A stretch of 64,000 nucleotides of DNA from an uncultured Thermoleophilaceae bacterium (GTDB taxonomy: Bacteria; Actinomycetota; Thermoleophilia; Solirubrobacterales; Thermoleophilaceae). Position 1 is the stretch's first letter, and each line of letters begins with the position of its first letter. The notes beneath the pieces are model-generated. The model was not told the DNA's origin. It ran no database searches and saw nothing but the letters and a program-made list of their open reading frames with translations. Both the position numbers and the translations under genes were made by a program. Below are positions 2,903 through 63,795 of the stretch, one piece after another. Where the stretch lies: NCBI GenBank assembly GCA_963811205.1, contig CAWEQJ010000003.1, forward strand, positions 11,223-75,222, in the 5' to 3' direction.

Positions 2903-4035
2903 CCCTGTCCGTGTCCAGTCCAGAGCCTCTGCCCTCGCCGCGCGGCGCCCACCTGCAGATGGTGGGCGCCGTGCTGGCGGGCGAAGGACTCGAGCGCATC
3001 GCGACGATCGCATCCGAGCACGTGGGCGCGCCGGTGGCGGTGGTGGTGCCGCGCGTGGGCGTGCCCGTGGAGGCGTGGTCGCGCTACGAGCGCTACGTGT
3101 CGGCCAAGCTCGGCGGCGGCCGGCCCGACACGCCCGAGGACGTGGTGGCCGAGGTGCCGATCAGCTCCGGCGGCAAGGACCTCGGCGCGGTGCTGATGCT
3201 CGCGCCCGGCGTGCCCGAACGCCGGCGAGTACCTGCACGTGGCGGCGGTGGCGGCGCTGACGGAGGTGGCCGTGGTGGAGGCGCGCGAGGAGACCGAGCA
3301 GCAGCTGCGCGGCTCGGTGATCGAGGAGCTGCTCCGCCGCGAGGACGATCGACGAGGACGATCTTCTCCGCAGGGCGCGACGGCTCGGCACGGATCTGAC
3401 TGCGGGAGCTGTGGCGCTGTGCGCGGTACCCCGCAACCGCGCGCCGGGCCGGCTGCTGGCCGTGATCGCGGCCGAGCGCCCGGACGCGCCTGGCCGAGGC
3501 GGTGGGCGAGGAGCGCGTCTACGCGATCCTGCCCGGCTCGCTTCGAGGAGGCGCGCAAGCTGGCGGCGCGGCTGAGCACGCAGGCCACCGTGGGCCTGTC
3601 CTCTCGCTACGCGACGCGCGCGCGAGCTGCGGCTGGCGGTGGAGGAGGCGGAGCTCGTGCTGGACGTGCGGCTGGTCGGCGGCCATCCGGATCCCGAGGC
3701 GCTCGAGGGCGGCACCTACCGGCTGCTGTTCCGCGCCTTCGCCTCGGACCCCGAGGAGGTGCGCAGCTTCTACGAGGACACGGTGGCGCCGCTGGTGCGC
3801 TACGACGAGCAGTACTCGACGGATCTGCTGCACACGCTCGACGCCTACCTGTCCAACGACTGCAACATGAAGGCCACGGCCGGCGGCGATCCACGCCCAC
3901 CGGCACACGGTGAGCTATCGCCTCGACCGCATCCGCGAGCTCACCGAGCTCGATCCCGCCCGCAGCGAGCACCGCGAGCGCCTGGGCGTGGGCATCAAGG
4001 CGTACCGCATCCTCGCGCCGGCGCTGCCGCGCTGA
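2899..4035 (+). pseudogene. PucR/CdaR-family transcriptional regulator, with multiple apparent frameshifts
   Basis: The N-terminal part is in ORF 2485..3399 (LQMVGAVLAGEGLERIATIASEHVGAPVAVVVP). Middle pieces lie in frames 2 and 3. The C-terminal PucR-type HTH is in frame 1 (IHAHRHTVSYRLDRIRELTELDPARSEHRERLGVGIKAYRIL), ending at TGA 4033-4035. The start is uncertain (TTG 2899 overlapping the glnA stop, or ATG 2959). Confidence 0.7.
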
Positions 4036-4110: not shown

Positions 4111-5721
4111 ATGACGCCTGCCTCTGCTCGCGCTCGTCGCGCTCGTGCTCGTGGTCGCCTCCGCGCCGGGCGCCATCGCAGATGTGCAGCCGAAGATCGT
4201 GCACGGGAGCGACGCCGCGATCGCCGACTTCCCGTTCCAGGTCGCGCTGATCGAGTCGGGACCGCCCCGGTCTCGGCCAGTTCTGTGGCGGCGTGATACT
4301 CGACGCTACGCACGTGATCACCGCGGCACACTGCGTGTTCGACGTCCCGGGCTTCGCTCAGGCGAGGTCTCCGATCCGGAGCGACATCGCGGTATTCGCG
4401 GGCAGCGGCTGATCTCACCGCGGAATCGGCAACCGCGCTCGAGCGTCGGCAAGACTCGTTCGACCCGCGCCTACGACCCCGAGACGAACGATTCATGACG
4501 TCGCTCGGCTCACCTTGTCTACGCCGTTGACCGTTCGGGCACCGCAGATCGCGCCGATCGGATTCGTCGACGACATGGACTCATGGCCACGCGATCCCGG
4601 GCCCGACCGACGCGATGGTGACCGGCTGGGGCGACCAGGCCCCCAGCCGCTCGGGTGGAGGCGGTGCGACCCAAACCAGCTCAAGCTGCGCAGGTCAGCT
4701 GGTGGCCGACACGGCTGTCAGGACGATTGCGCGGCGTTCTACGAGGGCAATGCCACGAACACCTCGCGCCTGTTCTGCGCCGGCGACCACGGCTACTCGG
4801 CGCCGATCACCGACTCCTGCCAGGGCGACAGCGGCGGGCCGATCGTGCTCGGCAAGCCGCGACGCCCGCGCAGACTACGTGCTCGCCGGGCTCGTGGACT
4901 CCGGACGAGGGCTGCGCCCAGCCGGGCTTCCCGGGCATCTACACCCGGCTCGCCGACACCGACCTCCAGACCTTCCTGCAGCTCACCCGACTTCAACCGC
5001 AGGCGCCGCAGCAGGCCACCGCACACCACCGTCTCCGCCGGCAACCCAGCCCGGCCAGACGCTCACCTGCGACGCCGGGCCACGTGGACGCCGGCCGAGC
5101 GCCGACGTTCGAGCTACCAGTTCGTCAACACCTCCGGCGCGGCAGCTCACGCCGCTGCGCGCCAGCGGCACCACCTACACGATCCAGGCGAGCGACTGCG
5201 GCACGAGCATCTTCTGTGAGCCAAAGGCGACGAACGACGGCGGCTATGGCTTACGGCCGCAGCACCCGCTCGCTTCGTGCCCACGCCGGCGCCGCCCGCC
5301 CCCACCGCCGGCACCCCGCCGTCCGGTCCGAGCGACGCGACGGCGCCGCGGCTCGAGCGTGCTCAAGAAGAGCTGCACCAAGACGCAGCTGCACCGTGAC
5401 CGTGTCAGCGTGCGCGACGCCGCGCCCAGCTCCGGGCATCGCAAAGGTCAAGGCCACGCTGCGCTACACGCGCAAGGTCAAGTGCAAGAGCCACAAGTCG
5501 AGCGCCGCCAAGCGGAGGGTGCTGCAAGAGGCGCGTCCACCGCGGGCTGCGCACGAAGGCCGGCAAGAACGGCATGTTCACGATCGTGCGCCAGGCACCT
5601 CAGGCCGGGCACGGGCTACACGATCACGCTGCTGCCGTTCGACAAGGCGGGCAACCGGCCGCAGTTCTCCACGATCACCAGCGTGCGCACCAAGAAGCTG
5701 CACCCGTTCTTCCTGTTCTAG
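4111..5721 (+). pseudogene. Secreted trypsin-like (S1) serine protease with C-terminal Ig-like extension modules, with multiple apparent frameshifts
   Basis: There is a signal-like N-terminus (LLALVALVLVVASAPGAIA). S1 hallmarks are IVHGSDAAIADFPFQVAL, FCGGVILDATHVITAAHC (catalytic His), MVTGWG, DSCQGDSGGPIV (catalytic Ser) and GCAQPGFPGIYTRL. A downstream 'LTC..G.W' module and a DATAPR...DKAGN... module end in FLF* at 5721. Confidence 0.8.
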
Positions 5722-6363
5722 GAGGAGTCGAGCTGCTGCGCCTGCCGGCGCCGGCTTGCTGCGAGACTCTTCGGCGGGCGCGTCCGGAGCCGCCAGCGTC
5801 TCGAGCAGCGCCATCACCAGCGGTGCCGCGACGTCTGGCCCTCGTGGTCGGCCTTCTTCAGCCGGGCCAGGCTGGCCGCGTGGATCTTGTCGATCCTGTC
5901 GAGCATCGACGACAGCTCGGCGGCGATGTCCTTCCAGCCGCGGTCGTCGAGCGTCATGTCCGACGCGGCTGAGGTGCGCCTCGGCGCGGTCGAAGCCGCC
6001 CTGTGACGCGCTTGTGGTGCACCAGCTCGAGGATCTGCTCCACCGCGGCGCCGGTCATCGCCTGCTTGACGATCTCCGGCACCTGGCCCCATGCCTTGTC
6101 GCTGATCCGCGGGCGCGCGCCTGCAGCCGGTAGTGGTGCTCCACCGCGCCGCGGCGGGGCGTGGTCTTCACGAGCTTGATCAGATCGAAGCGAGCGAGCT
6201 GGCGCATGTGGTAGCTCACGCGGTTCACCGGCAGCCCGAGGGTGGTCGCGATCTCCACGGGACTCCCGTCCTTCTCCTCCAGCAGGCGCAGGATCTGAAC
6301 GCGCAGCGGGTGGGAGAGTGCCTTGACGGTTTCGGTGTCGGTGATGTCAGTCAGCGGTTTCAC
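5718..6363 (-). pseudogene. ArsR-family winged-helix regulator with an extended C-terminal region, apparently frameshifted
   Basis: ORF 6055..6363 gives MKPLTDITDTETVKALSHPLRVQILRLLEEKDGSPVEIATTLGLPVNRVSYHMRQLARFDLIKLVKTTPRRGAVEHHY. It continues in other frames (ORF 5814..6092: MTLDDRGWKDIAAELSSMLDRIDKIHAASLARLKK). The 3' end is uncertain; one candidate stop overlaps the protease stop. Confidence 0.6.
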
Positions 6364-8126: not shown

Positions 8127-9491
8127 ATGCTCAGACTCGCCTCACTTCTCTTCGCCGTTCTCGCGCTCGCCCTGGCGGGGGCTGCGCAGGCACGCAAGCC
8201 GATCGTCGCCTACATCGACCAGACCACCCACAAGCTGGCGCTGTACGACGCGGAGACCGGCGCCAACCTCACCCCGCCGAGCATCACCATCACCTCCACG
8301 CCGGGCTTCCAGGACGCGATGGCGATGTCGTTCGACGGCCGCTACGTGTTCTACGCGGGCAGCGACGACAAGCTGCACCTGTTCGACCGCTCGGGTGCGG
8401 GCAGCGCAGTGCCGCTGCCGGGGATCGACATCTACGCCAAGCCGACCGGGCTGAGCGTGAGCAACACGGGGCTGGTCGCCTTCGACAACAACGTGAACGG
8501 TCCGGCGGTGGTCTACGACAGCGCCAGCGGCAGCTTCGTGGATAGCGGGCTCGACTCGAGCACCAATCACAGCCGCCAGAGCCATCTGAGCGGCGACGGC
8601 CACTTTCTCGCCACCACCTGCAACGACCTCGCGCCCGCCTGCCCGGTGGACAGCGGCGGCCACTCGCAGCTGTTCGTGCAGGACATCCCCGGCAAGGCGG
8701 ACACCGCCAACCCGCCCTTCGACCTCGGCAACAGCCTCGACGGCGTCGACAAGGAACACCCGTGCATCAACAACGACGGCTCGCTCGTGGGCGCTGACGT
8801 GAACGAGGGCGGCACCGTGGGCAAGCAGGTGGAGATCTACAACCGCTCGCTCGGCAGCCTGGTGACGCCACCCGGCCTGAACAGCGCGGCAAACGTCGAC
8901 GACGTGCACTGCGTGATGAGCCAGGGTGCCGCGTACATCGGGCTGATCAGCGACAACGAGTTCAAGGTGTACGAGATGTCGAGCGCCAGCTTCCTCATGC
9001 TCCCGGCGGACATCAAGGCCATCAGCAACCCGATCTCGTTCGTGATGCCGTTCCCGCCGCCGCCGCCGCCGCCGGCGGCCGGCCCGCCACCGCCGTCCGC
9101 GGGCGCGCCGGACACCGCGGCTCCGCGCGTGCTCAGCAAGCGCTTCCGGAAGAGCTACGGGCTGGCTGGCGCGCTGAAGCACGGGTTGCTGGGGCGGATC
9201 ACGTCGAGCGAGGACGGCCGCGCCAGCGCCAGCGCCACCATCACCCGCGGAGCGGCCAGGCATCTGGGTCTGGCGGCGGCCAAGCGCAGGTCCAAGCGGC
9301 CGGTGAAGGTGGCCGCCGGCTCGGTGCGGCTGCACGCGGGCCACCCCGCCAAGCTACGGCTGAGGTTCACCCGCCGCGCCCGGCGCAAGCTGGCGCACAC
9401 CCGGCGCGTGAAGCTGATCATTCGCCTGACCGTGAAGGACGCCGCCGGGAACGCCACGCACGCCAGCGTGAGGACCACGTTGAAGCGCTAG
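8127..9491 (+). CDS. Secreted hypothetical protein (probable beta-propeller/TolB-like body, poly-Pro linker, basic C-terminal module)
   Basis: Intact 454-aa ORF with signal peptide MLRLASLLFAVLALALAGAAQA. It has a PPPPPPPAAGPPPPSAGAPDTAAPR linker followed by a ...VKDAAGNATHASV... module shared with two other secreted proteins in the window. Confidence 0.65.
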   Translation: MLRLASLLFAVLALALAGAAQARKPIVAYIDQTTHKLALYDAETGANLTPPSITITSTPGFQDAMAMSFDGRYVFYAGSDDKLHLFDRSGAGSAVPLPGIDIYAKPTGLSVSNTGLVAFDNNVNGPAVVYDSASGSFVDSGLDSSTNHSRQSHLSGDGHFLATTCNDLAPACPVDSGGHSQLFVQDIPGKADTANPPFDLGNSLDGVDKEHPCINNDGSLVGADVNEGGTVGKQVEIYNRSLGSLVTPPGLNSAANVDDVHCVMSQGAAYIGLISDNEFKVYEMSSASFLMLPADIKAISNPISFVMPFPPPPPPPAAGPPPPSAGAPDTAAPRVLSKRFRKSYGLAGALKHGLLGRITSSEDGRASASATITRGAARHLGLAAAKRRSKRPVKVAAGSVRLHAGHPAKLRLRFTRRARRKLAHTRRVKLIIRLTVKDAAGNATHASVRTTLKR

Positions 9492-9561
9492 TGGTGGATC
9501 TTCCGTCCAGGGCGTGGCACGTGGGCTGGCGCCGGGCGCCCGCGCCGCCGATCAGTAACGC

Positions 9562-9848
9562 GTGTACACCTCGTCGGTGAGCGGAATGAACCTCGGTGGC
9601 CTGATCCACGCGGCCTCCACCGACAACATCGCCAACGTCGACAGCGAGGGCTACCAGCCCTGGCAGGTGAATCCGGCCACGGACGCCACCGGCGGCGTGA
9701 ACGCGACGGTGAGCAAGTCGCAGAACACGGGTGTGGACCTGGCCAGCGACATGGTCGGTGTCATGACCGGCGCCGTCACCTACAAGGCCAACGCCCGCGC
9801 GTACGAGATGGAGAACGAGGCCGAGAAGAGCCTCGTCGACCAGCGCGT

Positions 9849-9852
<4 letters not shown>
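9562..9852 (+). CDS. Small (96 aa) flagellar basal-body rod (FlgB/FlgC)-like protein
   Basis: The N-terminus [29 protein letters not shown] resembles the flg_bb_rod signature. The C-terminus [36 protein letters not shown] resembles the rod C-terminal motif. It has a GTG start and no flagellar neighbours. Confidence 0.45.
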
Positions 9853-11695
<1,843 letters not shown>

Positions 11696-11713
11696 GGCTA
11701 GAGACAGTAGAGG

Positions 11714-12957
11714 TCACACGGCTTCGACCAGCTGCGCCGCCAGGTCGCCACGCCGCGACCGCCACCGACTCCAGGCCCAGCCAGTCCGCCATCACGTGCA
11801 GCTCGGCGGCCAGCTCCGTCGCGGTCTCCTCGGGCGCGTCTCGCTCTCCGTGGGCCGCCTGCACGCGCAGCACGCCCGCCTTGCGGTCGGCCTTCAGGTC
11901 CACGCGCGCCACCAGCCGGTCGCCGAGCAGGAACGGCAGCACGTAGTAGCCGTGCACGCGCTTGGGCGCGGGCACGTAGATCTCGAGCCGGTAGCGGAAG
12001 CCGAACAGGTCCTCCGTGCGCGCAGCGCTCGAACACGAGCGAGTCGAACGGCGACAGCAGCGCGCGGCGCGCGCACGCGCCGCGGCCGCGCGCGTCGCGG
12101 TGCAGGTACGCCGCGCCGCTCCAGCCCTCGACCGCCACCGGGATCAGCTCGCCCTCCTCCACGAGCTCCGCGATCGCGGGCTGCGCCTCGTGCGGGCGCA
12201 GGCGGAAGTAGTCGCGCAGGCACTGCTCGCTGGCCACGCCGTGCGCGCGCGCGGCGATGCGGATCAGCTCGCGCCGCGCGTCGGCCGGATCGGGGTCCGG
12301 CGCGTTCGCGATCTCCGGCGGCAGCACGCGCTCGGGCAGGTCGTAGCGGCGCTCGAACTGCTGGGTCCGCCCGGCGGCGGTCACCTGGCCCGACCAGAAC
12401 AGGTACTCCAGCGCGCGCTTGGTGTGCGGACCAGTTCCAGCCCCACTCCTCGCTGCTCGTGGCCGGCACGTCGTGCTGCAGCTCCTCCTCGAGCCGCGCC
12501 GCGGTGAGCGGGCCGCGGCTGCGGCCACCTCCTCGAGCACGGCCGCACCACGATCCGGGTGCTCGCGCGCGAGCGGCCGCATGCCGCCCCAGGCGTCGCT
12601 CGTCCGCGCTCTCCATGCGCCAGCGCAGCAGCCGGTGCGTGGCCGGCGGGATGAACGACGCCTCGTGCGCCCAGTACTCCACCAGGCGCCGCGGCTCGCG
12701 GCCCGCCGCACGGTCGAGCAGCGCGATGTCGTAGTTGCCGAGACGGCTGAACAGCGGCATGAGGTGGCTGCGCGCGAGCACGTTCACCGAGTCGATCTGG
12801 ATCAGCCCGATGCGGTCGATCACGCGCTGGAGCTGGCGCATCGTCACGCGGCCGCGCTGGCCGCGGGTCGGCGAAGCCCTGCGCGCGCGAGCGCGATCCG
12901 CCGCGCCTGCGTGAGCGTCAGCGACGCGTGGGGTGCGGGTGGGGCGGCCTTTGCCAC
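11714..12957 (-). pseudogene. YcaQ-family winged-helix DNA glycosylase (interstrand crosslink repair family), with several apparent frameshifts
   Basis: Pieces seen are [91 protein letters not shown] and [43 protein letters not shown]. Both ends are approximate. Confidence 0.7.
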
Positions 12958-23119: not shown

Positions 23120-24591
23120 TCAGCGCTGAGCGGCCTGCAGCTTGCGGCGTAGGGCCGCGCCAAGCGGCAGCGACTCGATGGCCGGACCCTCGCCGCCGAG
23201 CCAGCTCTCCACGTCGGGGCGCTGCAGCCGCGCGCGGCCCAGCCGCCATATGGCCGCCACGAGCGCGATTCCACCCAGCGCGATGCCGAACGCCACCCAG
23301 GTGGCGGTGCGCAGCCCGATCTCCGGGGTGCCCCCGGTGGTCATGGCTATGTGCAGCAGGATCGGGCCGGTGAGGAACGCGGCGACGCCGCGAAGCAGCT
23401 CGATCATCGCGAACACCCGCGGCAGCAGCGCGGACTCCAGCGAGAAGCCCGCCATGAACAGCGCCGGCGACACCGACGCTCCGGCGCCCACCCCGATGCA
23501 GCCCGAGCCCACCACCACGAGCGCGTCCGAGCCGCTGCCCGCGCCGGTGAGCACGAGCGCGCCGCCGGCGAGGATCACGAGACCCGAGAATGCCAGCACC
23601 GGCACCCAGCGCGTGAAGAAGATTGCGCCGAAGATTGCTGCGGTGACCAGCGCTCCGGCGAACTCCGGCCAGAACAGCATCGCGGCGTGAGTGGGCGAGG
23701 CACCCTTGCCCTGAAGCGCCGCTTCGGCCAGCTCCACGAGCGCTACCGACACAGCGCCGCCGACCATTGCGGTGAGGATTCCCGCCACGGGGATCGAGTG
23801 CGCGAGCTTCTCCACCGGCATGAGCGGGTTGGGGATGCGGTACTCGTAGGCCACCGCCGCCACGACCAGGATGGTGCCCGCGGCCAGGGGAAAGAAGACG
23901 ATAGAGCTGAGCAGCGCGTGAGACGCGAGCTCGGATGCACCGAAGAACGCGGCCGCGCAGCCGAGGCCGGCAAGGCCGAGCCCCACCAGGTCCACGGGCG
24001 CGTCGCGGCCCTGCGGCTCCTGATCCTCGAACGTGAGCAGCGCGAACACGATCGTGAGGACGCCCACGATCGCATCCCCCAGAACAGCCAGTGCCACTCT
24101 TTTGCGCCGGCGAACACACCTCCCACCACGGGCCCGATGGCCACCGCGCCGAAGATGCCGAGGTTCATCACCACAGCGGTCCTCGTCATCTTCTCCTTGG
24201 GCCAGCCGATCACGAGCGGCGGCACCGCCGCGATCAGCATCAGCCCGGTGGTGAGCCCCTGGGCAATCCGCCCGGCGATGAAGAAGCCCGGCGCCGGGGA
24301 CCAAGCGGTGAGCACCGAGCCGACCAGAAAGAGCGACGCGAACAGCAGCAGCAGCCTCCGCACCGGGAGCCGCATGGTGAGCTGCACGGCCAGCACGGTG
24401 CCGAACGAGTAGGCGGCGTTGGCCATCCCGCCGGTGAGCTGAAGCGCGCCCGCGCTCAGGCCAAGGTCCTTCTGAAGCAACTGGTCGAGCGGCGTGATCG
24501 CCGTCGTCAGCACGAGGTAGGGCACGAGCGCGCACACGACGAGCACGACCGTGCTCCAGTAGCTGTCCGCCAGGGGTCCGCGAAAGCGCAT
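23120..24591 (-). pseudogene. MFS transporter (DHA2-like, about 14 TM), with one apparent frameshift near 24085
   Basis: ORF 23743..24591 (LQLTGGMANAAYSFGTVLAVQL, GRIAQGLTTGLMLIAAVP) continues in ORF 23120..24535 from ...VGVLTIVFALL onward, giving many TM helices. Confidence 0.8.
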
Positions 24592-24620
24592 CTGAGCCAG
24601 CTACCCGATGCGCGTGGGGA

Positions 24621-25999
24621 TCACGCGCCCGGCGCCAGGGCGTTGGCGGCCTTGGCCTCGGCTTCGGCCACCTCGCGCGTACCCTCCACCCGCTCGATCG
24701 CCTGCAGCTCGCGGCACACCCGCCGGATGATGATGAACACGGCCACCGGCAGCACGAACACGAGCACGCGGTAGACCCAGATCTGCGTCGCGTAGCTCCA
24801 GCCGAGGAACAGGTAGATCCGGTCCGCCGAGCCGGCGACGAAGATCAGGAACACCCATGCTAGGAACGCCGCGCCGAACGCCGTGCGTCCGGGCGCGTCG
24901 CGCGGGCGGTCGAGCACGTTGTGGTACTCCCGGTCGCCGGTGATGCGGCGCTCGATCCAGGGCCAGCCCAGCAGCACGCCCAAGCACGATCAGCGGGAAC
25001 AGCGCGCCGCCCCAGAACGGGTTCGGCACGACCGTGTAGCCGCCGATCGTCACGTCGAAGCCGGGCACCAGCCGCAGCGCGCCGATCAGCCAGCCGAGGT
25101 ACCAGTCGGGCTGCGCGCCGTTGGTGCCCTGCCGCGAGGTGGTACGGGCCCCAGAGCCAGATCGGGTTGATCTGCACGAGCCCGCCGAGCAGGAACAGCA
25201 GCCCGGCCACGCCGAACATCAGCCCGAGCGAGCGCGGCGCCTGGCCGGGAACATCGGCACGCCCGAGCAGGCGCCGGTCGGTGGCGCGCCGCGAGCGGCG
25301 GAACTGCGTGTGGTGGCGCGAGGCCACGAGCGCGAGGTGCACCGCGATCAGCGTCGGCGATGATGCGCGGGGAAGAGGAACACGTGCGCGATGTACATGC
25401 GCGACTCGAACGCGGGGTCGCCCGGAAACGGCGCGCCCCAGAGCGAGCAGCCCGAGGTTGCCGCCGACGAACGGGATCGAGAGCGCCACGCCGTAGCCGA
25501 TCGCGAGCCCCATGCCCGACAGCAGGTCGTCGACCATCGAGTAGCCGAGGTAGCCCTCGAGCAGCGGTGGTGAACAGCATCAGCAGGCCCACGACGTAGG
25601 TGAGCTCGCGCGGCTTGCGGAACGCGCCGGTGAAGAAGATGCGCATCAGGTGGAGCACGATCGCGGCCACGAACACGTCGGCCGCCCAGTGGTGGGTCTG
25701 GCGGATGAGCAGCCCGGCCTTCACGTCGGAACGAGATGTCCACCACGGACTTGTATGCCTCGCTCATCTTCTGCCCCTGCAGCGGGGCGTAGCTGCCGTG
25801 GTACACGGTGTCGGCCAGGCTCGGCTGGAAGAAGAGCGTGAGGTAGATGCCGGTGGCCGACCAGCACGATGAACGCGTAGAGCGCCACCTCGCCGAGCAG
25901 GAACGACCAGTGGTCGGGGAACAGGTAGCGCAGCGTGCCCCTGATGAACGGCGCGCCGCCGCTGCGCGAGTCGATGAAGCCGACGAGCCGGCGGATCAC
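24621..25999 (-). pseudogene. qcrB: Cytochrome bc1 complex cytochrome b subunit, with many apparent frameshifts
   Basis: Pieces across frames are FIRGTLRYLFPDHWSFLLGEVALYAFIVLV, LIRQTHHWAADVFVAAIVLHLMRIFFTGAFRKPRELTYVVGLLML, DDLLSGMGLAIGYGVALSIPFVGGNLG, INPIWLWGPY, PNPFWGGALFP and C-terminal WPWIERRITGDREYHNVLDRPRD. The GTG start overlaps the qcrA stop (GTGA). Confidence 0.85.
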
Positions 26000-27002
26000 G
26001 AGGAGCTCCCCGGGTTCACCGCGGGCCGCTTGCGCACGCCCCACCACGACGGCCCAACGGGACCTGAGAAGTTGCCGGCCGCGCGCAGGTGGCCGTCGCC
26101 GTCGATCTCGAGCGGCAGCTGCGGCAGCGGCGCGGCCGGCCGGGCCGAACAGCACCGTCGCCGCCGTCGCGCCGGGTCGAAGGTGGAGTAGTGGCACGGG
26201 CACACCAGCGCCGGCTCGGGCTCGACCGGCGGGAACATCGGCTTGCGGTAGAGCGCGATCGCGCAGCCCGCGTGCGTGCAGATCTTCGAGTAGGCCACGA
26301 TGCCGAGCGGCGCCCAGCCGCGCGCGCGCGCGCGGCAGCTTGAGCGCGCTCGGGTCGAGCCGCACGATCACCACCGGCGCCGCGATGTCGTTGCGCGATG
26401 GCGTGCTCGGGATAGGCCGTGTAGAAGGTCTCCTGCTCGATGTCGGCGGCCTTGATCGGCACGCCGTCCTCGCGTACGAGCCGCTTGCCGCGCCGCCACG
26501 GGGACCAGCGCAGCTCGTCGGTGTCGAGCGCCGGCCCGAGCGACAGCGCCGGCGCCAGCGCCGCCAGCCCCGAGCGCGCCGCGCGGCCGCGCCCGCCGCG
26601 GCCTGCACCAGGCGCTTGCGCGTGAAGCGGCTGCCGCTCTCGCGCACGATCTGGCGTCACCGCGGCCTGATCCTGCGGGTGCTCCTGCGCCGGGTAGTCC
26701 TCGCTGAGCTCCTCGGTCACCACGAGGCGCTTGCCCAGCAGGATCAGCGCGGCCGCCATGAACACCAGCGAGCCGCCGAGCGCGATCCCCTCGTACTGCG
26801 TCTGGTTGGGCCAGTGATCGGTGGCATAGACCACGATGAAGCCGACGGCGAACAGCGCCGACAGGAGCAGCAGCGCCACCAGCCACAGCTCAGCGGCGGG
26901 CTGCCTCGAACCCTCCCTGACGATCCTCCGGCGGTGGCCCTTGCCGAGCGCGCCACCCACGATCGCGCCGAGTGCGAACACGAACGACCGCAGCCGGCTC
27001 AT
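25996..27002 (-). pseudogene. qcrA: Rieske iron-sulfur subunit of the bc1 complex, with apparent frameshifts
   Basis: The N-terminal TM region is MSRLRSFVFALGAIVGG...LWLVALLLLSALFAVGFIVVY. The Rieske boxes are CTHAGCAIA and CPCHYSTFD. The C-terminus is LPQLPLEIDGDGHLRAAGNFSGPVGPSWWG. Confidence 0.8.
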
Positions 27003-27794
27003 GCGCGCAACCTCTCGCCGATCAGCACGCACAGGCCGATCAGCGCCACCGCTGCGATGAACCAGGTGAGCAGCCCCTCGGGCACCGGGCCGAGGTGCCC
27101 GATGCCCCAGCCGCCGCGGTCGGACGGCTGCTTGACGGACTGGATGTAGGCGATGATCGAGTTGAGCTGGCGGTCGCTGATGTGCCTATGTCGAGAACTT
27201 CGGCATCAGGTTGGGCCCGACGCGTACGGCCTCGGCGATCTGGGTGGGCGTGTCCTCCTTGATCGGCGGCACGCGCACGTTCGGTCACGTAGCCGCCCTC
27301 GGCCACCGCCTGGTGGCAGCCGGCGCAGTGCTCGGTGAACAGGTGGAAGCCCTCGGACACCTTGCCCGCGGCCGGATCGGGATGCGGGATCGGCGGGCCG
27401 GGCGCGAGCGACGCCACGTACTGCGTGATCGCGTCGATCTCCTTTGGCGTGAACTCCACGCGCCGCCGCCACGGCTGCTGATGCGGGTTCTGGAGTGGCA
27501 TGAAGCCGGTGGTGAGGAAGAGGTCCGCGGCCTGGGCGCCCACGCCGGCGAGCGGCGGTCCCTGGCCCTTCACGTTGCCCGCGCCGCGCCGGGGCTCGGC
27601 TCCGGCACGCCGCGGCCGGCGATGCCGTGGCAGCTCGCGCAGTTGCCCGCGTAGAGCTGCGATCCCAGCTCCTGCTGCGAGAGGCCCTTCTCGTTGTCCG
27701 GCCGCGAGATGCCGCTCGGCAGCTCTGCATGCGCCACCGCGGCCAGCGCGAGCGCCGCGAGCGCGATTGCGATCAGGGTTCGCGCGCGCCTCAT
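26999..27794 (-). pseudogene. qcrC: Diheme cytochrome c subunit of the bc1 complex, with apparent frameshifts
   Basis: The signal peptide is MRRARTLIAIALAALALAAVAHA. There are two heme motifs, CASCH and CAGCH. A C-terminal TM anchor, LLTWFIAAVALIGLCVLIG, is recovered after frame changes. Both ends have ATGA overlaps. Confidence 0.8.
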
Positions 27795-28168
27795 CCCTGG
27801 TGGCAGCTCGGCAGGATCTCGGTGGCGATCCCGCTCATCAGGATGATCACGAGGAAGAGCGGGCTGATCACCATCCCGCAGATGGACAGGAAGTAAATGC
27901 GGCCCTCCGGCGGCGCGCTGTCGCTGTCGGCGCCGCGCGTGGCGCGGAAGGTGAGGACCGAAGCCGCGAGCGCGGCCACGGCCAGCGCGCCCGCCAGCGC
28001 CGTCGCGATGGCGGTCCAGGTGTCGATCGGCACGCTCACCCCGCGGCTGCCGACGCTGCACGAGGCGTCGGACACGCCGATGCCGAACGCGTGCTGGCAC
28101 GCCCACATCGCGGGCGCGCCGAGGATGCCGGCCCACATCAGCAGCTCCACTGAGCGCCGGGTCCTCAC
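27791..28168 (-). CDS. Hypothetical membrane protein embedded between ctaE and qcrC
   Basis: GTG 28168 overlaps the ctaE stop (GTGA). The sequence reads VRTRRSVELLMWAGILGAPAMWACQHAFGIG...TWTAIATALAGALAVAALAASVL...YFLSICGMVISPLFLVIILMSGI (3-4 TM). Its stop overlaps the qcrC ATG. Confidence 0.5.
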   Translation of the reverse strand: MRTRRSVELLMWAGILGAPAMWACQHAFGIGVSDASCSVGSRGVSVPIDTWTAIATALAGALAVAALAASVLTFRATRGADSDSAPPEGRIYFLSICGMVISPLFLVIILMSGIATEILPSCHQG

Positions 28169-28747
28169 AGCGCCGGATACACCTGGGTGAACACCACGCC
28201 GATGCCCACCAGGCTGACGAAGTACCAATAGAGCGCCGCCACCCGCACGCCCACCAGGCGGTAGCTCGTGAGCCCGCCCGCCAGCTTGCCCGACGAGCCA
28301 CAGCTCGATCAGCATCCCCACGGCCACGTGGGCGTGGTGGATACCGAGCAACGTGAAGTAGATCGACGCGTACGCGGAGCCGTGCGGGCTGAACTTGTCG
28401 AGGTCGCCGAGGAACTCGTGCAGCTGCACTCCGAGGTAGCCGCCCTGGATCACGAGCGCCGCGAGGAAGCACAGCCAGGCGAGCCCCGCGTTGCCCGCCC
28501 GCGCCGCGCGGCTGCCAAGAAACACCGGCACCGTGCTCGCCACCAGCACCCCGGTGAGCACGAGCGGCAGCGCCAGCTTGGGATCGGGCACGCCCGGCGG
28601 CGGCCACTGCGCGCTGTTGAAGCGCAGGTAGAAGTAGGTGGCGATCAGCGAGGCGAACAGCGTGGCCTCCGTGGCCACGAACAGGGCCGCGCCCCAGATC
28701 CCGTTCGGCAGGGCCCGCCGCTGGCTGTCCGCATTCACGCCGCTCAC
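28165..28747 (-). pseudogene. ctaE: Cytochrome c oxidase subunit III, with one apparent frameshift near 28270
   Basis: GIWGAALFVATEATLFASLIATYFYLR, FTLLGIHHAHVAVGMLIELW, then in another frame TSYRLVGVRVAALYWYFVSLVGIGVVFTQVYPAL*. Confidence 0.8.
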
Positions 28748-28748
28748 C

Positions 28749-30652
<1,904 letters not shown>

Positions 30653-58335: not shown

Positions 58336-58409
58336 GCCGACGTAGCTCAGTTGGCCAGAGCACCGCTCTCGTAAAGCGGGGGTCGTGGGTTCGAATCCCA
58401 CCGTCGGCT
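58336..58409 (+). tRNA. tRNA-Thr (anticodon CGU)
   Basis: Hand-folded cloverleaf: acceptor GCCGACG/CGTCGGC, D arm GCTC-AGTTGGCCA-GAGC, anticodon arm CCGCT-CTCGTAA-AGCGG (CGT), T arm GTGGG-TTCGAAT-CCCAC, discriminator T. No encoded CCA. Confidence 0.95.
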
Positions 58410-58530: not shown

Positions 58531-59514
58531 TTGCTTGACCCGAGCCCACAATCGCGACCTATCCTGCTTCGCGTGGACGTTCGCTCGCCGGATGACGTAG
58601 ACGACGCTCCCGACGACCTGGCGGCGTCGGTTCAAAGGCGAACGCTCCCCAGGTACATCACGGAGCGCAGGGAGCGGGCTGAGGCTCAGTACGCCAGACA
58701 TGAGGCGCTCCTACGTCCCGCGGTGCAGGCCCATCTCGCCACGGATCGAACGGTGGTCGACGCCCTCGACGCCTGGCATCGGCAGATCGCGGACGAGTCA
58801 AACTTGACTCTAGATGGCGATAGCCGCCAGGCAGCGACGTGGCTTGTGGCTGGCAGGTGCATCGGCCTTGCACGGGCAGTGCTCGCGCTCCTTGAGGCCG
58901 GGTTCACGGCGGAGGCCGCTGCGGAGGTCAGAGTGCTCCACGAGGCGACGAGATTGTTGTGGGTGCTCGCCGACGAGGACGAGCCCGAGCTGTTGCGTCG
59001 GTGGCTCGCGGATGAGGACAACCGCTGGGTCCGACCGTGGGAGGCGCGCATCGCCGGGGATCGTCAGCGGGAGCGCGTGGCCGAGCGCCTACCAGATGCC
59101 TTGAAGGAGGCCGAGGCCCACGGCGATACGGAGAGCGCCGCGCAGCTGGCGGAAGCCATACGGACCGCCCGCCTCGATGAGGACGGTGTTTTGGCGGCGA
59201 ACAGCCTCCAGATCTACGACGTCCTCTCGCGGATCGGTCATATCCGCCGGTCGAGCATGCGGGACTCGCTCTCGACGGCCCTCCGCCAGATGGCGACCGG
59301 TCCCCACCCCGATCCGCTCGTTCGCGCCGAGTACGTCGAGTGGGTGAGCCACATCATTGAAGAGGTGGTCCTCGCGGTCTGTGATGCGTTGGGCCCGTTC
59401 TTCCCTGGGGGCTCGGCGATCACGCTCATGCGAAAGCTGGTCGGTGCCCTGGACCTTGCGCGTGCTGAAGCGCCGCTCGACGCGGTGACGCGGGCTTCGA
59501 TCGCGCGCCGCTGA
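58531..59514 (+). CDS. Hypothetical all-alpha protein (first gene of the island)
   Basis: 327-aa ORF with a non-ATG start (TTG 58531, or GTG 58573). No motif recognised with confidence. ATWLVAGRCIGLARAVLALLEAGFTAEAAAEVRVLHEATRLLWVL is faintly reminiscent of DUF5677-type proteins, which is speculative. Confidence 0.4.
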   Translation: MLDPSPQSRPILLRVDVRSPDDVDDAPDDLAASVQRRTLPRYITERRERAEAQYARHEALLRPAVQAHLATDRTVVDALDAWHRQIADESNLTLDGDSRQAATWLVAGRCIGLARAVLALLEAGFTAEAAAEVRVLHEATRLLWVLADEDEPELLRRWLADEDNRWVRPWEARIAGDRQRERVAERLPDALKEAEAHGDTESAAQLAEAIRTARLDEDGVLAANSLQIYDVLSRIGHIRRSSMRDSLSTALRQMATGPHPDPLVRAEYVEWVSHIIEEVVLAVCDALGPFFPGGSAITLMRKLVGALDLARAEAPLDAVTRASIARR

Positions 59515-59546: not shown

Positions 59547-60080
59547 TCAGCCAGCCAGGGAGTAGGGGTCGAGCATCCCTAGGTTGATCAAGCGGTACTG
59601 CATTGCTGCGGGGCTGACTTGAAATCGCTGGGCCAGCGCCGACACCAAGTCCGGCGGTGTGAGGTTGTGGCGTTTCGCGACGATCTTGTCGATCTCCTCG
59701 GGGACGAGGCTTCGTGGCATCAGTAACTCGGCCGCGAACGCATTTGCCTGCCGCTCCTCCGAGGTGGACTGTCCATCGCGGAGGTTCACGCGAACAAAGC
59801 GATCGATGAAGACCGGCTGACCCTTGTGCATCTCGAGATGACCGATCTCGTGGGCGACGGTGAAACGCTGACGAGTCGGTGCGTGCCGGGAATTCACGCC
59901 AATGACAGCTGTGCCCTCACCTCGGAAGAGCATGCCGGAGATGTCCCCATCAAACGACTCGTAAGTGACTTGGACACCAAGACGGCGTGCGATCTGCTCG
60001 ACCGGCACCGGAGAGTCCGAGATACCCATCCGGTCCAGCACGCCGATCGCCTTTTGCTCGGCCGATGAGGGCGCGGTCAT
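59547..60080 (-). CDS. ImmA/IrrE-family zinc metallopeptidase (CapP-like)
   Basis: Intact 177 aa with the HEIGHLEMH zincin motif. Its ATG overlaps the stop of the upstream XRE gene (ATGA). Confidence 0.85.
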   Translation of the reverse strand: MTAPSSAEQKAIGVLDRMGISDSPVPVEQIARRLGVQVTYESFDGDISGMLFRGEGTAVIGVNSRHAPTRQRFTVAHEIGHLEMHKGQPVFIDRFVRVNLRDGQSTSEERQANAFAAELLMPRSLVPEEIDKIVAKRHNLTPPDLVSALAQRFQVSPAAMQYRLINLGMLDPYSLAG

Positions 60081-60424
60081 TGCTCAGCCGCCGAGCGACG
60101 CACCGGCTGACCATGAGACTTTCGGAGCACGCGAGTAGCAAAGTCGAGGCCTTCGGCGTCTTGCTGCAGCGCTTTGAGGGCACGTTGGGGAAGCAACTCG
60201 TCGACACCTCCGTCGTGGTCGGGGAGAAGGTCGGCGGGCTGTCGTCCAACGGCAGCTGCGAGGAGGTAGAGCTGGTGCAGGCTGATGTGTTGACGTCCGC
60301 GTTCGATGTTTGTTACGGACGTACGCGTGAGCCCAACCCTCTCCGCGACATGCTCCTGAGTAAGCCCGACCTCTTTTCGGGCGTCCCGGAACTGGCGGCC
60401 AAACTGGCGGTACAGCCCATCCAC
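60077..60424 (-). CDS. XRE-family helix-turn-helix regulator (CapH-like), probably leaderless
   Basis: The HTH is FRDARKEVGLTQEHVAERVGLTRTSVTNIERGRQHISLHQLYLLAAAVG. GTG 60424 lies 7 nt after a -10-like hexamer. The ORF track's TTG 60460 would add an atypical N-terminus. Confidence 0.8.
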   Translation of the reverse strand: MDGLYRQFGRQFRDARKEVGLTQEHVAERVGLTRTSVTNIERGRQHISLHQLYLLAAAVGRQPADLLPDHDGGVDELLPQRALKALQQDAEGLDFATRVLRKSHGQPVRRSAAEQ

Positions 60425-60431
60425 CGTGCGG

Positions 60432-60460
60432 AGTATGGCGCGGATCAGGACATATGTCAA
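60432..60460 (-). promoter_or_regulatory. Predicted promoter of the XRE-ImmA operon, overlapped by the palindrome TGTCAATATCGCTGACA (60455-60471)
   Basis: On the minus strand: TTGACA (60460-60455), a 17-nt spacer, CATACT (60437-60432), 7 nt, then GTG 60424. The TGTCA-N7-TGACA inverted repeat covers the -35. Confidence 0.45.
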
Positions 60461-60541: not shown

Positions 60542-60580
60542 GGGGTTTGTCAGATCGCCATTGAGAAGGAGATGATGTCA

Positions 60581-60864
60581 ATGTCGCAAACATCCGCAGA
60601 GCCGACGACCCATCCCTCCAACGGGGGCCGCCACGGGGTGACCGTGAAGGTGAACAACAAGCCGGTGGTTATTTCACGCCGCCGGGTGACCGGTCTGCAG
60701 ATCAAGGAGGCGGCAATAGCGCAGGGCGTAGAGATCGAGCTCGACTTCATCCTCACGCTCGAGGCGCGCGGCGGCAAGCCAGCGGAGACGACGACGACGA
60801 TCAGACGATCACCATCACGAAGCATTCAGAGTTCATCGCGAACGACGGAGACGACGACTCGTAA
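60581..60864 (+). pseudogene. Multiubiquitin-type ubiquitin-like (beta-grasp) protein, with one apparent frameshift at about 60783
   Basis: HGVTVKVNNKPVVISRRRVTGLQIKEAAIAQGVEIELDFILTLEARGGKPA continues in the next frame, through a (GAC)n run, as GDDDDDQTITITKHSEFIANDGDDDS*. ATGs are at 60572, 60575 and 60581. The TAA at 60862-64 abuts the next ATG. Confidence 0.65.
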
Positions 60865-61281
60865 ATGAAGGTCACCGTCGTCGCGGCGATCAAAGAGATC
60901 TCCGATGCACGGGTCGGCACTGACGTCCGGACGAAGGAGGACGCCGACGGCGGGGCTTACGTGATCGTGGACGGGATACGCGTCGGGGCGTCGTTCTCGC
61001 CCTCGACCGCCTGGATCGGCTTCCACATCGTCTGGGCCTACCCGGATGCAGACGTGTATCCCCACTTCGCCGACGCGAGCCTCAAGTACGTCGGCGCCAA
61101 CTCGACGCCCAACCAGTACCCCGAAGGCAATCTGCCCAGCGCGATGACCCGCGGCGCGACGATGCCTGGCTTCGAGGTGCCGGCGATCCAGATCTCGCGC
61201 AAGTCGAATCGCCGCAACGCGGAAACCGACTCCGCGCTCCGGAAGCTATTGCGAATCATTGAGTTCTTGAGGACGCGCTAA
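60865..61281 (+). CDS. Prokaryotic E2/UBC-like protein without any cysteine
   Basis: Intact 138 aa. WIGFHIVWAYPDADVYPHFAD...QYPEGNLP...AIQISRKSNRR fits my recollection of the Prok-E2 families that sit next to multiubiquitin and JAB-E1 genes. It is wedged between the Ubl and the E1 by TAAATG and TAATG junctions. Confidence 0.55.
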   Translation: MKVTVVAAIKEISDARVGTDVRTKEDADGGAYVIVDGIRVGASFSPSTAWIGFHIVWAYPDADVYPHFADASLKYVGANSTPNQYPEGNLPSAMTRGATMPGFEVPAIQISRKSNRRNAETDSALRKLLRIIEFLRTR

Positions 61282-62720
61282 TGCAGCAGTGGACCCTGAG
61301 GTTCGAGGAACTCATGTACGAACGGCTATGCGCCCACCTCTTCCCCGGTGACAACGACGAACATGGGGCTGTAGTCGCTGCCGGAATCGTGTCCACCGAG
61401 CGCGGGACACGGTTGCTCGCGCGCGACCTCTTTCTCGCGGAGGACGGGGTTGACTTCGTGGCGGGCGTGCGGGGATACCGACGGCTGACCCCCCAATTCG
61501 TCCGCGAGCGAATCCGGTTCTGCCGCGACGAACGGCTCACTATCTCGCCATCCATAACCACGGCGGGGCCAACTCGGTCGCGTTCAGCGAGCCCGACATG
61601 CGCTCCCACGAGCGCGGCTACCCCGCACTCCTCGATATCTCCGATCAGCCGGTGGGAGCGCTTGTCTTGGCCAAGAACTCCCTGGCCGGTGACATCTGGA
61701 CAGCGGACCGTCGACGTCGGTCGATCAGCGAGACGGTGGTGGTGGGCCGGAATCTGCACCGCGTCTATCCAGAACCGCCGGCGCCGCCGCCGAAGGCGGA
61801 TCCGACCTATGACCGGCTGGTCCGGTGGTTCGGCGAGCGGGGCCGCGATTTGCTGGCGACGATGAAGATCGGCGTGGTCGGCGCTGGCGGGGTCGGCCTA
61901 CCGGTCGTCACGATGCTGAGTCGGCTTGGGGTAGGGGAGTTAGTTGTGATCGATCCGGACCGGATCGATCCCACCAACCTTCCGCGCATGCCAGAAGCCC
62001 GTCGGCTCGATGCATTGATGCCGCTGCGGAGGATCCCGGGCGGGGCGCCGCTCGCTGATCGATTGTCAACCCGAAAAATTCGTCTCGCCCGCCGCGCAGC
62101 TCGACGGGCCAATCCGAAGATCCGCTTCAAGGGATTCCCAACCAACGTCGTCGAGCCCCGGGCGGCGTTCGAGCTCGTCGACTGCGACTACATATTCCTC
62201 GCCGCAGATGGGCACCTGGCTCGAATGCTGGTGAACGCCGTGGCGCACCAGTTCCTGATTCCCGCCGTGCAGCTCGGCACCCGGATCGACGTTGACCGGA
62301 ACTCGGGGGCTGTCGGAGATATCCGCACGAACGTCCGGCCGATCCTTCCTGGCAGCGGCTGCCTTCGCTGCAACGGCCTGATCTCGGCCGCCAAACTCCA
62401 AGAGGAGGCGACCGCCCCTCGGGAGCGGGAGCGGAATCGGATACGTGGAGGAAATTCCCGCCCCGAGCGTGATCACGTTCAACACCTGGGCAGCCTCGCA
62501 GGCAGCGTCAGACTTCCTGCTCAGCGTCGGCGAATTCCTGGAACCAGCAGCGCCGATCGACTATCTGCGATCGCGGCCGCGACTGCGCAAGGTCGAGCCG
62601 GTCAGACCAGTCGCCAACAAGCCACGATGCCGCGACTGCGGATCCGAATCGAGTAGCCGCAGAGCGCGCGGACAAGGTGTCGAGCTGCCGCTCCCAGAGC
62701 GGCGGGCGGGTCAACGATGA
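61281..62720 (+). pseudogene. JAB/MPN (JAMM) peptidase domain fused to a ThiF/E1-like adenylyltransferase, with two apparent frameshifts (about 61540 and about 62440)
   Basis: The N-terminus has NDEHGAVVAAG (JAMM Glu) and, after a frame change, YLAIHNHGGANSVAFSEPD (HxH...SxxD). The E1 part has MKIGVVGAGGVGLPVVTMLSRLGVGELVVIDPDRIDPTNLPR, DYIFLAADGH, CLRC...CRDC (two CxxC pairs) and EEIPAPSVITFNTWAASQAASDFLL. Confidence 0.75.
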
Positions 62721-62775: not shown

Positions 62776-63342
62776 CTAAGGCTCGATGCCCAGTTCCCTT
62801 AAAGAGACGGCTGTCTGGACTAGGCCTGCGTGCTCGATGTTGTCCAGGTACTCCGTGATGGTCACGGGCGGATTGCGAAGCCGTGCGACCACCCTGCGGG
62901 CGGCGCTGATCACTAGGCCTGGGTGCAGGTCGACGGCGTGGTGGATGAAAACGTCGGCTCGTTGAGCTTCGATTCCGTACGGCTCGAGTTTGTCAGCGGG
63001 GAAGTCCTTGATGTTCTCGGTGACAATTACGTCCGCCTTGGCGACGATGGCAGCGGCGAGAACGTGCCGGTCGTCGGGGTCGGGAAGCTCGAGCGAGTCC
63101 ACGAGGCTCATGTGGCCCTCGACCAGGACATCGGGAATGGCCTCTCTCATGAGCTGTTTGCTGCGCTCGAGTTGTTTCGGATCGAGGTCCTTCCGCGCGT
63201 CGAGGATGTTGCGGAAGACCTCGTCAAGGATCTCTTCGGTGTAGCGGGCGCGGAACTCGCCGGCGAGTCCCATCTCGAGTAGCAGGTCGCGGATGGTTGC
63301 CGGGTACAGGACACACGCGTCGTAGACGGCGGTGAACGCCAC
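62776..63342 (-). CDS. PIN-domain toxin
   Basis: Intact 188 aa. The N-terminal AVYDACVLY supplies the first acidic residue, followed by DDRHVLAAAIVAKADVIVTENIKDF. Confidence 0.75.
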   Translation of the reverse strand: MAFTAVYDACVLYPATIRDLLLEMGLAGEFRARYTEEILDEVFRNILDARKDLDPKQLERSKQLMREAIPDVLVEGHMSLVDSLELPDPDDRHVLAAAIVAKADVIVTENIKDFPADKLEPYGIEAQRADVFIHHAVDLHPGLVISAARRVVARLRNPPVTITEYLDNIEHAGLVQTAVSLRELGIEP

Positions 63343-63348
63343 TCGCGC

Positions 63349-63795
63349 TTAGTAGCCGAGGCCGAGCTCTTGCGCCTCGTCAGCGAGCTGCTGCATGACC
63401 TCGGCGCGCTGAGCATCGTCGCGGCGCTTGTATTCGAGAAGATCGCTGAGGACGATCCGCCGGTGCGTGCCGACCTTGTGAGCCGGCAGCTTCTTGTCCT
63501 CGATCAGTTGGACCACGTAGGGTCGAGACACGTTCAACAGCTCGGCGGCCTGTTGGGTGCTGAGTTCCGCGTGTTTGGGCATCACGACGATCCCGTCGCC
63601 GTTGGCAAGATGCGCGAGGATGTCGATGAAAAGGCGGAACGCCGGAGCGGGGACCATGACCGCTTCGCCTTCAGGGGTGCACAGCTGGACCGTGGAAGCT
63701 TGCTCCTGAAGGAGACCGACGAGCGCCCGGGCAGCGTCGGCCGCCTCGGCGGTTTGTTCCTGCGGCAGTGCGGTGGGGTCAAGTGTCGCTGTCAT
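63349..63795 (-). CDS. Excisionase-type (MerR-like) HTH antitoxin partner of the PIN protein
   Basis: Intact 148 aa. LSTQQAAELLNVSRPYVVQLIEDKKLPAHKVGTHRRI. It lies 6 nt upstream of the PIN gene. Confidence 0.7.
   Translation of the reverse strand: MTATLDPTALPQEQTAEAADAARALVGLLQEQASTVQLCTPEGEAVMVPAPAFRLFIDILAHLANGDGIVVMPKHAELSTQQAAELLNVSRPYVVQLIEDKKLPAHKVGTHRRIVLSDLLEYKRRDDAQRAEVMQQLADEAQELGLGY

Follow-up and report, generated by a model that had tools for sequence, protein, structure and literature searches.

Our analysis of the 138-aa open reading frame at positions 60865–61281 (+) suggests that it encodes a divergent E2 of the BubB type, which would use a serine as its nucleophile, and that it is one gene of a three-gene Bub-like ("6e"-type) conjugation cassette carried on an island at a tRNA-Thr gene. 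We give this reading a probability of about 0.6. Positions refer throughout to the window, that is, the whole 64,000-nt stretch of DNA that was analysed. The reading is built from the family alignment of the E2-like protein, its predicted fold, a single invariant serine, and the Ubl and E1 genes between which it lies.

The E2-like gene starts with ATG at 60865 and stops with TAA at 61279–61281, and translation of this interval gives zero Cys, in agreement with the original prediction, which had read all 138 residues without meeting one. The HPN motif and thioester Cys by which canonical E2 (UBC) proteins are recognised are absent from this Cys-free protein. Taken alone, the lack of Cys is not beyond chance expectation. 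With a local Cys frequency of ~0.7% (nine local proteins), a protein of 138 aa has a probability of ~0.36 of containing none, and the CapH-like and CapP-like proteins encoded nearby likewise have zero Cys. The absence becomes meaningful because the protein has an E2 fold and because the Cys-less state is a trait of its family. Zero Cys is found in 65 of 120 close homologues and in 34 of 92 representatives (50% clustering), and Cys occurs in at most 11 of the 92 at any alignment column, so that no conserved Cys column exists. Judged from these alignments, the missing catalytic Cys is a property of the E2-like family.

The AF2 model of the protein (34 homologues) has a pLDDT of 88.8 and a pTM of 0.85, and its elements run in the order helix, four strands, beta-hairpin and C-terminal helix. 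In a Foldseek search of the PDB, the best match was Citrobacter BubB (9eae_C; TM 0.68/0.73, rmsd 2.9 Å, 126 columns, probability 1.00), and next in rank were the E2 domain of Cap2, the UEV domain of Vps23 and Ube2W; the same search against viral structures gave nothing meaningful. At the level of single sequences, the window protein has no match in Pfam (even at E ≤ 10), NCBIfam, PADLOC or phmmer searches of PDB sequences. The original prediction had proposed alignment to Prok-E2 family HMMs, and the outcome was divided: the window protein and its close family have no PF14462 match (E ≤ 10), but distant relatives do. Against the PF14462 (Prok-E2_E) gathering cut-off of 25 bits, these relatives score 25.8 (P0134), 21.2 (a copy on a Mycolicibacterium plasmid, L023), 16.3 (P0246) and 15.4 (P0222), and Citrobacter BubB scores 93.8. 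Moreover, profile–profile comparison of the family (92 representatives) with BubB-type sequences gave E-values of 5.5e-5 and 4.1e-6, with almost the entire length aligned. The window protein is thus a divergent member of the BubB/Prok-E2_E superfamily, by a link that is transitive and structural, with no direct Pfam match. The family itself is readily recovered. At E ≤ 1e-3 there are 129 homologues, nearly all of 137–139 aa and all unnamed or called "hypothetical protein", and 238 family representatives are present among 1.84 billion clusters at 50% identity. A homologue search with the 363-residue Citrobacter BubB query taken from the paper PDF returned one partial protein only.

Comparison of the family profile with PDB sequences gave only Rad6-type E2 matches at E ~1, which placed the catalytic Cys opposite Pro91 in 'PNQYPEGNLP', a segment superficially like the HPN...C region of canonical E2s. 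We rejected this site mapping because residues 77–89 (window 61093–61131) form an insertion of the window's subclade, GANSTPNQYPEGN, which is absent from the wider family and is not conserved there.

The original prediction had named two candidate serines in the segment QISRKSNRR (residues 109–117), namely Ser111 (codon TCG, 61195–61197) and Ser114 (codon TCG, 61204–61206), and only the first proved invariant when conservation was counted in an alignment of 92 full-length family representatives. Ser111 is conserved in 91 of the 92, the remaining one being a gap; it is never substituted and is the sole invariant hydroxyl residue. Position 114 is not invariant, with Ser in 64 and Thr in 14 representatives and Asn, Gln, Arg, Ala or Ile in ~14. 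Other strongly kept residues are Tyr65 (92/92), Pro66 (91/92) and Lys127 (90/92), and Gly29, Gly30, Trp50, Pro60, Arg112 (84/92) and Asp63 (82 Asp and 3 Glu of 92) are near-invariant. The His that Type I BubAB fusions carry at Ser+2 has no counterpart: position 113 is Arg in 59 of 92 and Lys in 12, with Ser, Ala, Val or Gln in the rest, and no His column lies nearby among the 92 representatives. His67 is present in only 58 of them. In the AF2 model, Ser111 directly follows the last beta-strand, ~12 residues ahead of the C-terminal helix, in a loop (111–120) whose mean pLDDT is only 68.

The motif around Ser111, SR[RK]S, resembles SRH(R)S of BubB, and the precise correspondence depends on which BubB sequence is aligned. 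With the PDF-derived Citrobacter sequence, hhalign sets S111 opposite S333 and K113 opposite H335; with the database sequence P0121, a gapless alignment sets R112 opposite S333 and S114 opposite H335; and in MAFFT and phmmer alignments the register is off by one or two residues. The PDF-derived BubAB sequence, read from Supplementary Table S2, has 363 rather than 362 residues, with G229 at 228 and S333 at 335, and because of these reading errors alignments built on it are less reliable than the P0121 alignment. In addition, hhalign sets BubB D299 opposite Tyr65; the conserved Asp of the family is Asp63. A single-sequence AF2 model of P0121, by which the BubB Ser might have been located relative to the strand end, had a pLDDT of 48 and was unusable. 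Hence, Ser111 aligns with the BubB catalytic Ser333 or lies within 1–2 positions of it, with an exact register that is ambiguous.

Immediately upstream of the E2-like gene lies a Ubl gene (60581–60864, +) encoding a single beta-grasp domain of the Multi_ubiq type, which was delimited with Pfam PF14452, three-frame translation and DNA alignment to the orthologue at locus L003; its TAA stop abuts the ATG of E2. Downstream, a gene encoding a fusion of JAB/JAMM peptidase and E1 (ThiF), similar to BubCD, spans 61281–62720 (+; Pfam ThiF and tblastn pieces), and its ATG overlaps the E2 stop (TAATG). The E2 gene is thus the middle one of a translationally coupled Ubl–E2–E1 trio.

In the window, the Ubl terminates as ...FIANDGDDDS-stop. 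In 10 of 11 intact loci (in the range L003, L006–L017), a C-terminus of the form [GA][DE][DE][DN]S after AND closes the reading frame, with the stop codon directly behind it, and at L008 two extra residues follow the conserved C-terminus. Fused Ubl–E2 relatives also occur (P0162, P0228 and others), and in such fusions DDNS precedes the E2 domain. Because the Ubl ends in Ser at the stop codon, the residue to be activated is apparently Ser, not Gly. Regarding the E1, the intact orthologue at L003 aligns with PDB BubCD (8e-23, residues 9–413) through the JAB and the E1 domain alike, a match far above those to other PDB entries, and the RNR-Y of this orthologue aligns with the catalytic Y370 of BubCD. 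The crossover-loop Tyr codon of the window E1 is TAC at 62442–62444. In 11 intact loci, this Tyr is retained together with the adenylation motifs and the JAB motifs (E, HxH, S, D). A CxxC in the crossover loop is paired with a second CxxC at the C-terminus of the E1, and the two probably form a structural zinc site.

Divergently from these three genes run a gene for a CapH-like HTH repressor (60077–60460, −; Pfam HTH_31/HTH_3, PADLOC capH at 1.6e-10) and a gene for its partner, a CapP-like M78 (ImmA/IrrE) metallopeptidase (59547–60080, −; Pfam Peptidase_M78 at 5.6e-26, PADLOC capP at 3.6e-35). CapH and CapP may take part in regulation of the cassette. A 9-nt inverted repeat (CGCCATTGA / TCAATGTCG, 13 nt apart) lies at 60556–60586 between capH and the Ubl gene, over the Ubl ribosome-binding site and start; it may serve as an operator or be fortuitous. 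Between the tRNA-Thr gene and the CapP-like gene, a 327-aa open reading frame (58531–59514) has a weak DUF5677 match.

[quoted passage not shown] This statement agrees with Ye et al. 2024 (bioRxiv 10.1101/2024.11.21.623953), who report Bub E1 and E2 proteins without catalytic Cys, using a crossover-loop Tyr on E1 and a Ser on E2. In their experiments, BubB S333A/H335A, BubBD S106A and E1 Tyr-to-Phe changes abolished conjugation, the Type I E2 mutant being a Ser and His double mutant, and in Type I BubAB fusions the His two residues after the Ser was invariant, as was an Asp (H335 and D299 in Citrobacter). Type I operons also fuse a JAB/JAMM peptidase to a homodimer-type E1 that has no catalytic Cys, an arrangement shared by the window cassette. 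By comparison with these systems, the serine/oxyester reading of the window E2 is supported. According to this reading, the JAB–E1 fusion would adenylate the C-terminal carboxylate of the small Ubl (...GDDDS) and would then be charged with it at the crossover-loop Tyr through an oxyester bond; the Ubl would be handed from the E1 Tyr to Ser111 of E2 as a second oxyester, and finally be moved from Ser111 to a target amine. [quoted passage not shown]

In the window, two of the three cassette genes are split between reading frames. Compared with the intact L003 orthologues, the Ubl gene has a 1-nt deletion near 60782, which leaves it in two frames, and the E1 gene lacks 1 nt near 61539 and has an insertion of 1 nt at ~62439–62441, which leave it in three; the insertion falls immediately ahead of the predicted catalytic Tyr codon. 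If these frameshifts are real, this copy could be non-functional, and the E2 reading frame would be a functionless orphan in a decaying pseudogene cluster. Three frameshifts within 2.2 kb at non-homopolymer sites speak for such decay, as does the independently built Logan contig L004, which shares all three indels and differs by two substitutions over 5.6 kb. However, the housekeeping gene typA/BipA of the window, which encodes a translational GTPase (9418–11695, −) is broken in the same manner, into five open reading frames covering TIGR01394 positions 1–61, 69–170, 198–292, 297–472 and 485–594, which needs at least 4 indels in ~1.8 kb, an equal indel density. Frame-hopping is also seen elsewhere in the window: segmentation by codon-position GC gives same-strand frame switches with distant stops at 1559–4032, 10261–12427 and 24072–28754, which suggests further frameshifted genes beyond typA. 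Moreover, four related long-read metagenome bins (isolate names beginning with MFD, contigs called contig_N) carry scattered frameshifts in at least one of the three cassette genes, with E2 affected in two bins, while in most other cassette-bearing genomes the three genes are intact. The window assembly is error-prone and probably a long-read one, and because typA is broken likewise we read the Ubl and E1 frameshifts as most likely assembly errors and regard true pseudogene decay as improbable.

The same error-prone assembly might be held to have removed a catalytic Cys codon from E2, and the lack of any direct Pfam, NCBIfam, PADLOC or PDB sequence match might be taken to mean that the protein is not E2-like at all; the original prediction had named both as outcomes that would overturn it. 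Neither came about. The E2 reading frame is collinear with 138-aa homologues of up to 80% identity, without gaps and from end to end, so that Cys loss by sequencing error is effectively excluded despite the indel errors of the window. The 129 homologues and 238 cluster representatives have no conserved Cys column, and the confident fold model with its strong structural match to BubB speaks against a protein of another fold. With the family alignment both ideas are refuted, and we assign them only a very remote chance. A different question is whether the E2 fold is catalytic. The protein may be a UEV/RWD-like domain that binds Ubl or positions E1 and is never covalently loaded, as would fit its lack of Cys, the missing His partner of the BubB serine, the presence of the Vps23 UEV domain among the structural matches, and the description by Iyer et al. 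2006 (PMC1779556) of the standalone gene between polyUbl and JAB+E1 as a likely inactive E2/RWD-like protein. Against this, an invariant Ser stands at or beside the position of the BubB catalytic Ser, serine mutants of the homologous BubB and BubBD abolish conjugation, the E1 retains the Tyr required for the hand-off, and the UEV match (TM 0.41, probability 0.35) is far weaker than that to BubB (TM 0.68, probability 1.00). We consider a non-catalytic role unlikely, although it is the chief rival to the serine reading. It is also conceivable, though distinctly improbable in our view, that E2 is catalytic through Ser/Thr114 or another conserved residue. The gapless P0121 alignment, with S333 opposite R112 and H335 opposite S114, would allow such a shift, and 78 of the 92 representatives have Ser or Thr at position 114; yet this position is substituted in ~14 of them, whereas Ser111 never is.

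A further component expected from published Bub operons is the serine protease BubE (DUF6527/PF20137). According to Ye et al. (bioRxiv 10.1101/2024.11.21.623953), every Bub operon encodes BubE, and their catalogue was built from operons containing DUF6527. Searches by tblastn, signature and Pfam covered the window together with 13 genome loci, 3 metagenome contigs and 3 plasmids, and none of them yielded BubE; two of the metagenome contigs have sufficient flank, and one contig, L020, ends too near the E1 gene for a judgement. As a positive control, Citrobacter BubE matched PF20137 at 4.8e-21. On the three plasmids, open reading frames lying in the gaps that follow the E1 gene have no DUF6527 match. 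One tblastn match of E. coli BubE, to a 377-aa gene of L023 (E 0.001), was unsupported by Pfam and was discarded. Because the published Bub catalogue is anchored on DUF6527, cassettes that lack BubE would have gone uncounted.

The tRNA-Thr (CGT) gene at 58336–58409 (+; ARAGORN) probably marks where the island bearing the cassette integrated. Downstream of the cassette are a PIN/VapC gene (62776–63342) and an HTH_17 gene (63349–63795) that form a pair. Contig L004, which matches the window here, continues with an integrase gene (5542–6225 of that contig), just beyond the window end. The block from the tRNA-Thr gene to the integrase looks like an integrated island.

The gene order Ubl–E2–JAB/E1 is kept at 13 loci in genomes of Solirubrobacterales, Gaiellaceae, Acidimicrobiia, Conexibacteraceae, Limnocylindria and Nocardioides szechwanensis, on 3 finished plasmids, from Rhizobium, Mycolicibacterium and Nostoc, and on 3 metagenome contigs; the query for the plasmid search was a consensus-like sequence typed from the family alignment, not a natural one. 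Intact copies are present in four cultured strains, namely Nocardioides szechwanensis CGMCC 1.11147 and, on plasmids, Mycolicibacterium crocinum JCM 16369, Rhizobium ruizarguesonis NZLR24 and Nostoc sp. ATCC 53789. Beside some cassettes lie defence genes, namely type I restriction HsdR in L021 (1–2506) and genes for AbiJ_NTD4 and Schlafen/AlbA_2 proteins in L019 (4356–6477), a neighbourhood that fits a defence-island context. At L003, a 277-aa gene matching Pfam Proteasome (PF00227) lies at 4141–4974, ~0.8 kb upstream of the cassette, flanked by an integrase fragment and an RHH gene. Its presence may be a coincidence, or it may be an island-borne proteasome homologue.

An E2 without Cys is, as such, already explained by the 6e operons described in 2006 and the oxyester mechanism reported in 2024. 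Nor is the division of Ubl and E2 into two genes new, since Table S1 of Ye et al. (bioRxiv 10.1101/2024.11.21.623953) lists ~30 Type I operons of this layout, and Iyer, Burroughs and Aravind 2006 (PMC1779556) described a standalone Cys-less E2-like gene between Ubl and JAB+E1 in 6e operons. The window protein stands apart in belonging to an unannotated clade without BubE, without the His at Ser+2, and with a Ubl ending in Ser. The clade is spread over Actinomycetota, Chloroflexota, Cyanobacteria, Alphaproteobacteria and Deinococcus. Tentatively, and at somewhat worse than even odds, it might represent a distinct third Bub type, free of BubE, in which Arg112, Lys127, Asp63 and Tyr65 would activate the Ser, the Ubl would be made ready with its C-terminal Ser, and JAB, with no Ubl–E2 fusion left to split, would carry out deconjugation instead of BubE.

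Several consequences arise from these data. In every record examined, the members of this sizeable E2 clade (238 cluster representatives) go under the name "hypothetical protein", and Pfam, NCBIfam and PADLOC miss the window protein together with its close relatives. Since the Ser and the E1 Tyr are retained in the clade and the His partner and BubE have been lost, it offers a natural test of which residues an oxyester E2 needs, and also of how conjugates are removed. The intact copies in cultured strains make the clade testable.

Among known systems, the closest likeness is to Type I BubB of Citrobacter sp. RHBSTW-00271 (9EAE/9EAV). Each protein is a minimal UBC fold that lacks the two C-terminal helices as well as a catalytic Cys, and in each an invariant Ser stands shortly ahead of the last helix. 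The likeness extends to a JAB–E1 partner with a crossover-loop Tyr, a Multi_ubiq-type Ubl, association with CapH/CapP, and location on an island at a tRNA gene. However, identity to BubB over the structural alignment is only 16%, and PF14462 misses the window protein. The His at Ser+2 of Citrobacter BubB is replaced by a variable, mostly Arg or Lys residue, BubE/DUF6527 was not found in ~19 loci, the Ubl of the window clade ends in Ser where that of Type I Bub ends in Gly, and the E1 of the clade keeps a CxxC...CxxC whose cysteines Citrobacter BubCD lacks. In two of these features the window clade is more like the Type II system of E. coli ZDHYS365, in which the E2 Ser of BubBD (S106) has a basic residue at +2 (HWFS-N-K) and BubA ends in Ser. 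Type II BubBD differs in having its E2 fused to E1, no JAB, and BubE present, whereas the window has a standalone E2 and a JAB domain on its E1.

The 6e operons around PF14462 share with the window a Ubl or polyUbl, a Cys-less E2-like gene that is standalone or fused, and a JAB+E1 gene; they also include a conserved metal-binding protein, now DUF6527/BubE, which was not found in the window cassette, and the window protein falls below any reportable threshold for the PF14462 family, which corresponds to the 'inactive E2/RWD-like' domain of these operons. Eukaryotic UEVs (Vps23/Tsg101, Mms2) resemble the window protein in having a UBC fold and no catalytic Cys, with a weak structural match, but they lack a conserved nucleophile, and their genes do not adjoin those of a dedicated E1 and Ubl, whereas the window family has an invariant Ser. 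Finally, the E2 domain of Cap2 from Type II CBASS, the second-best structural match, is likewise a truncated bacterial E2 fold, but it uses a catalytic Cys and thioesters and conjugates a CD-NTase rather than a Ubl.
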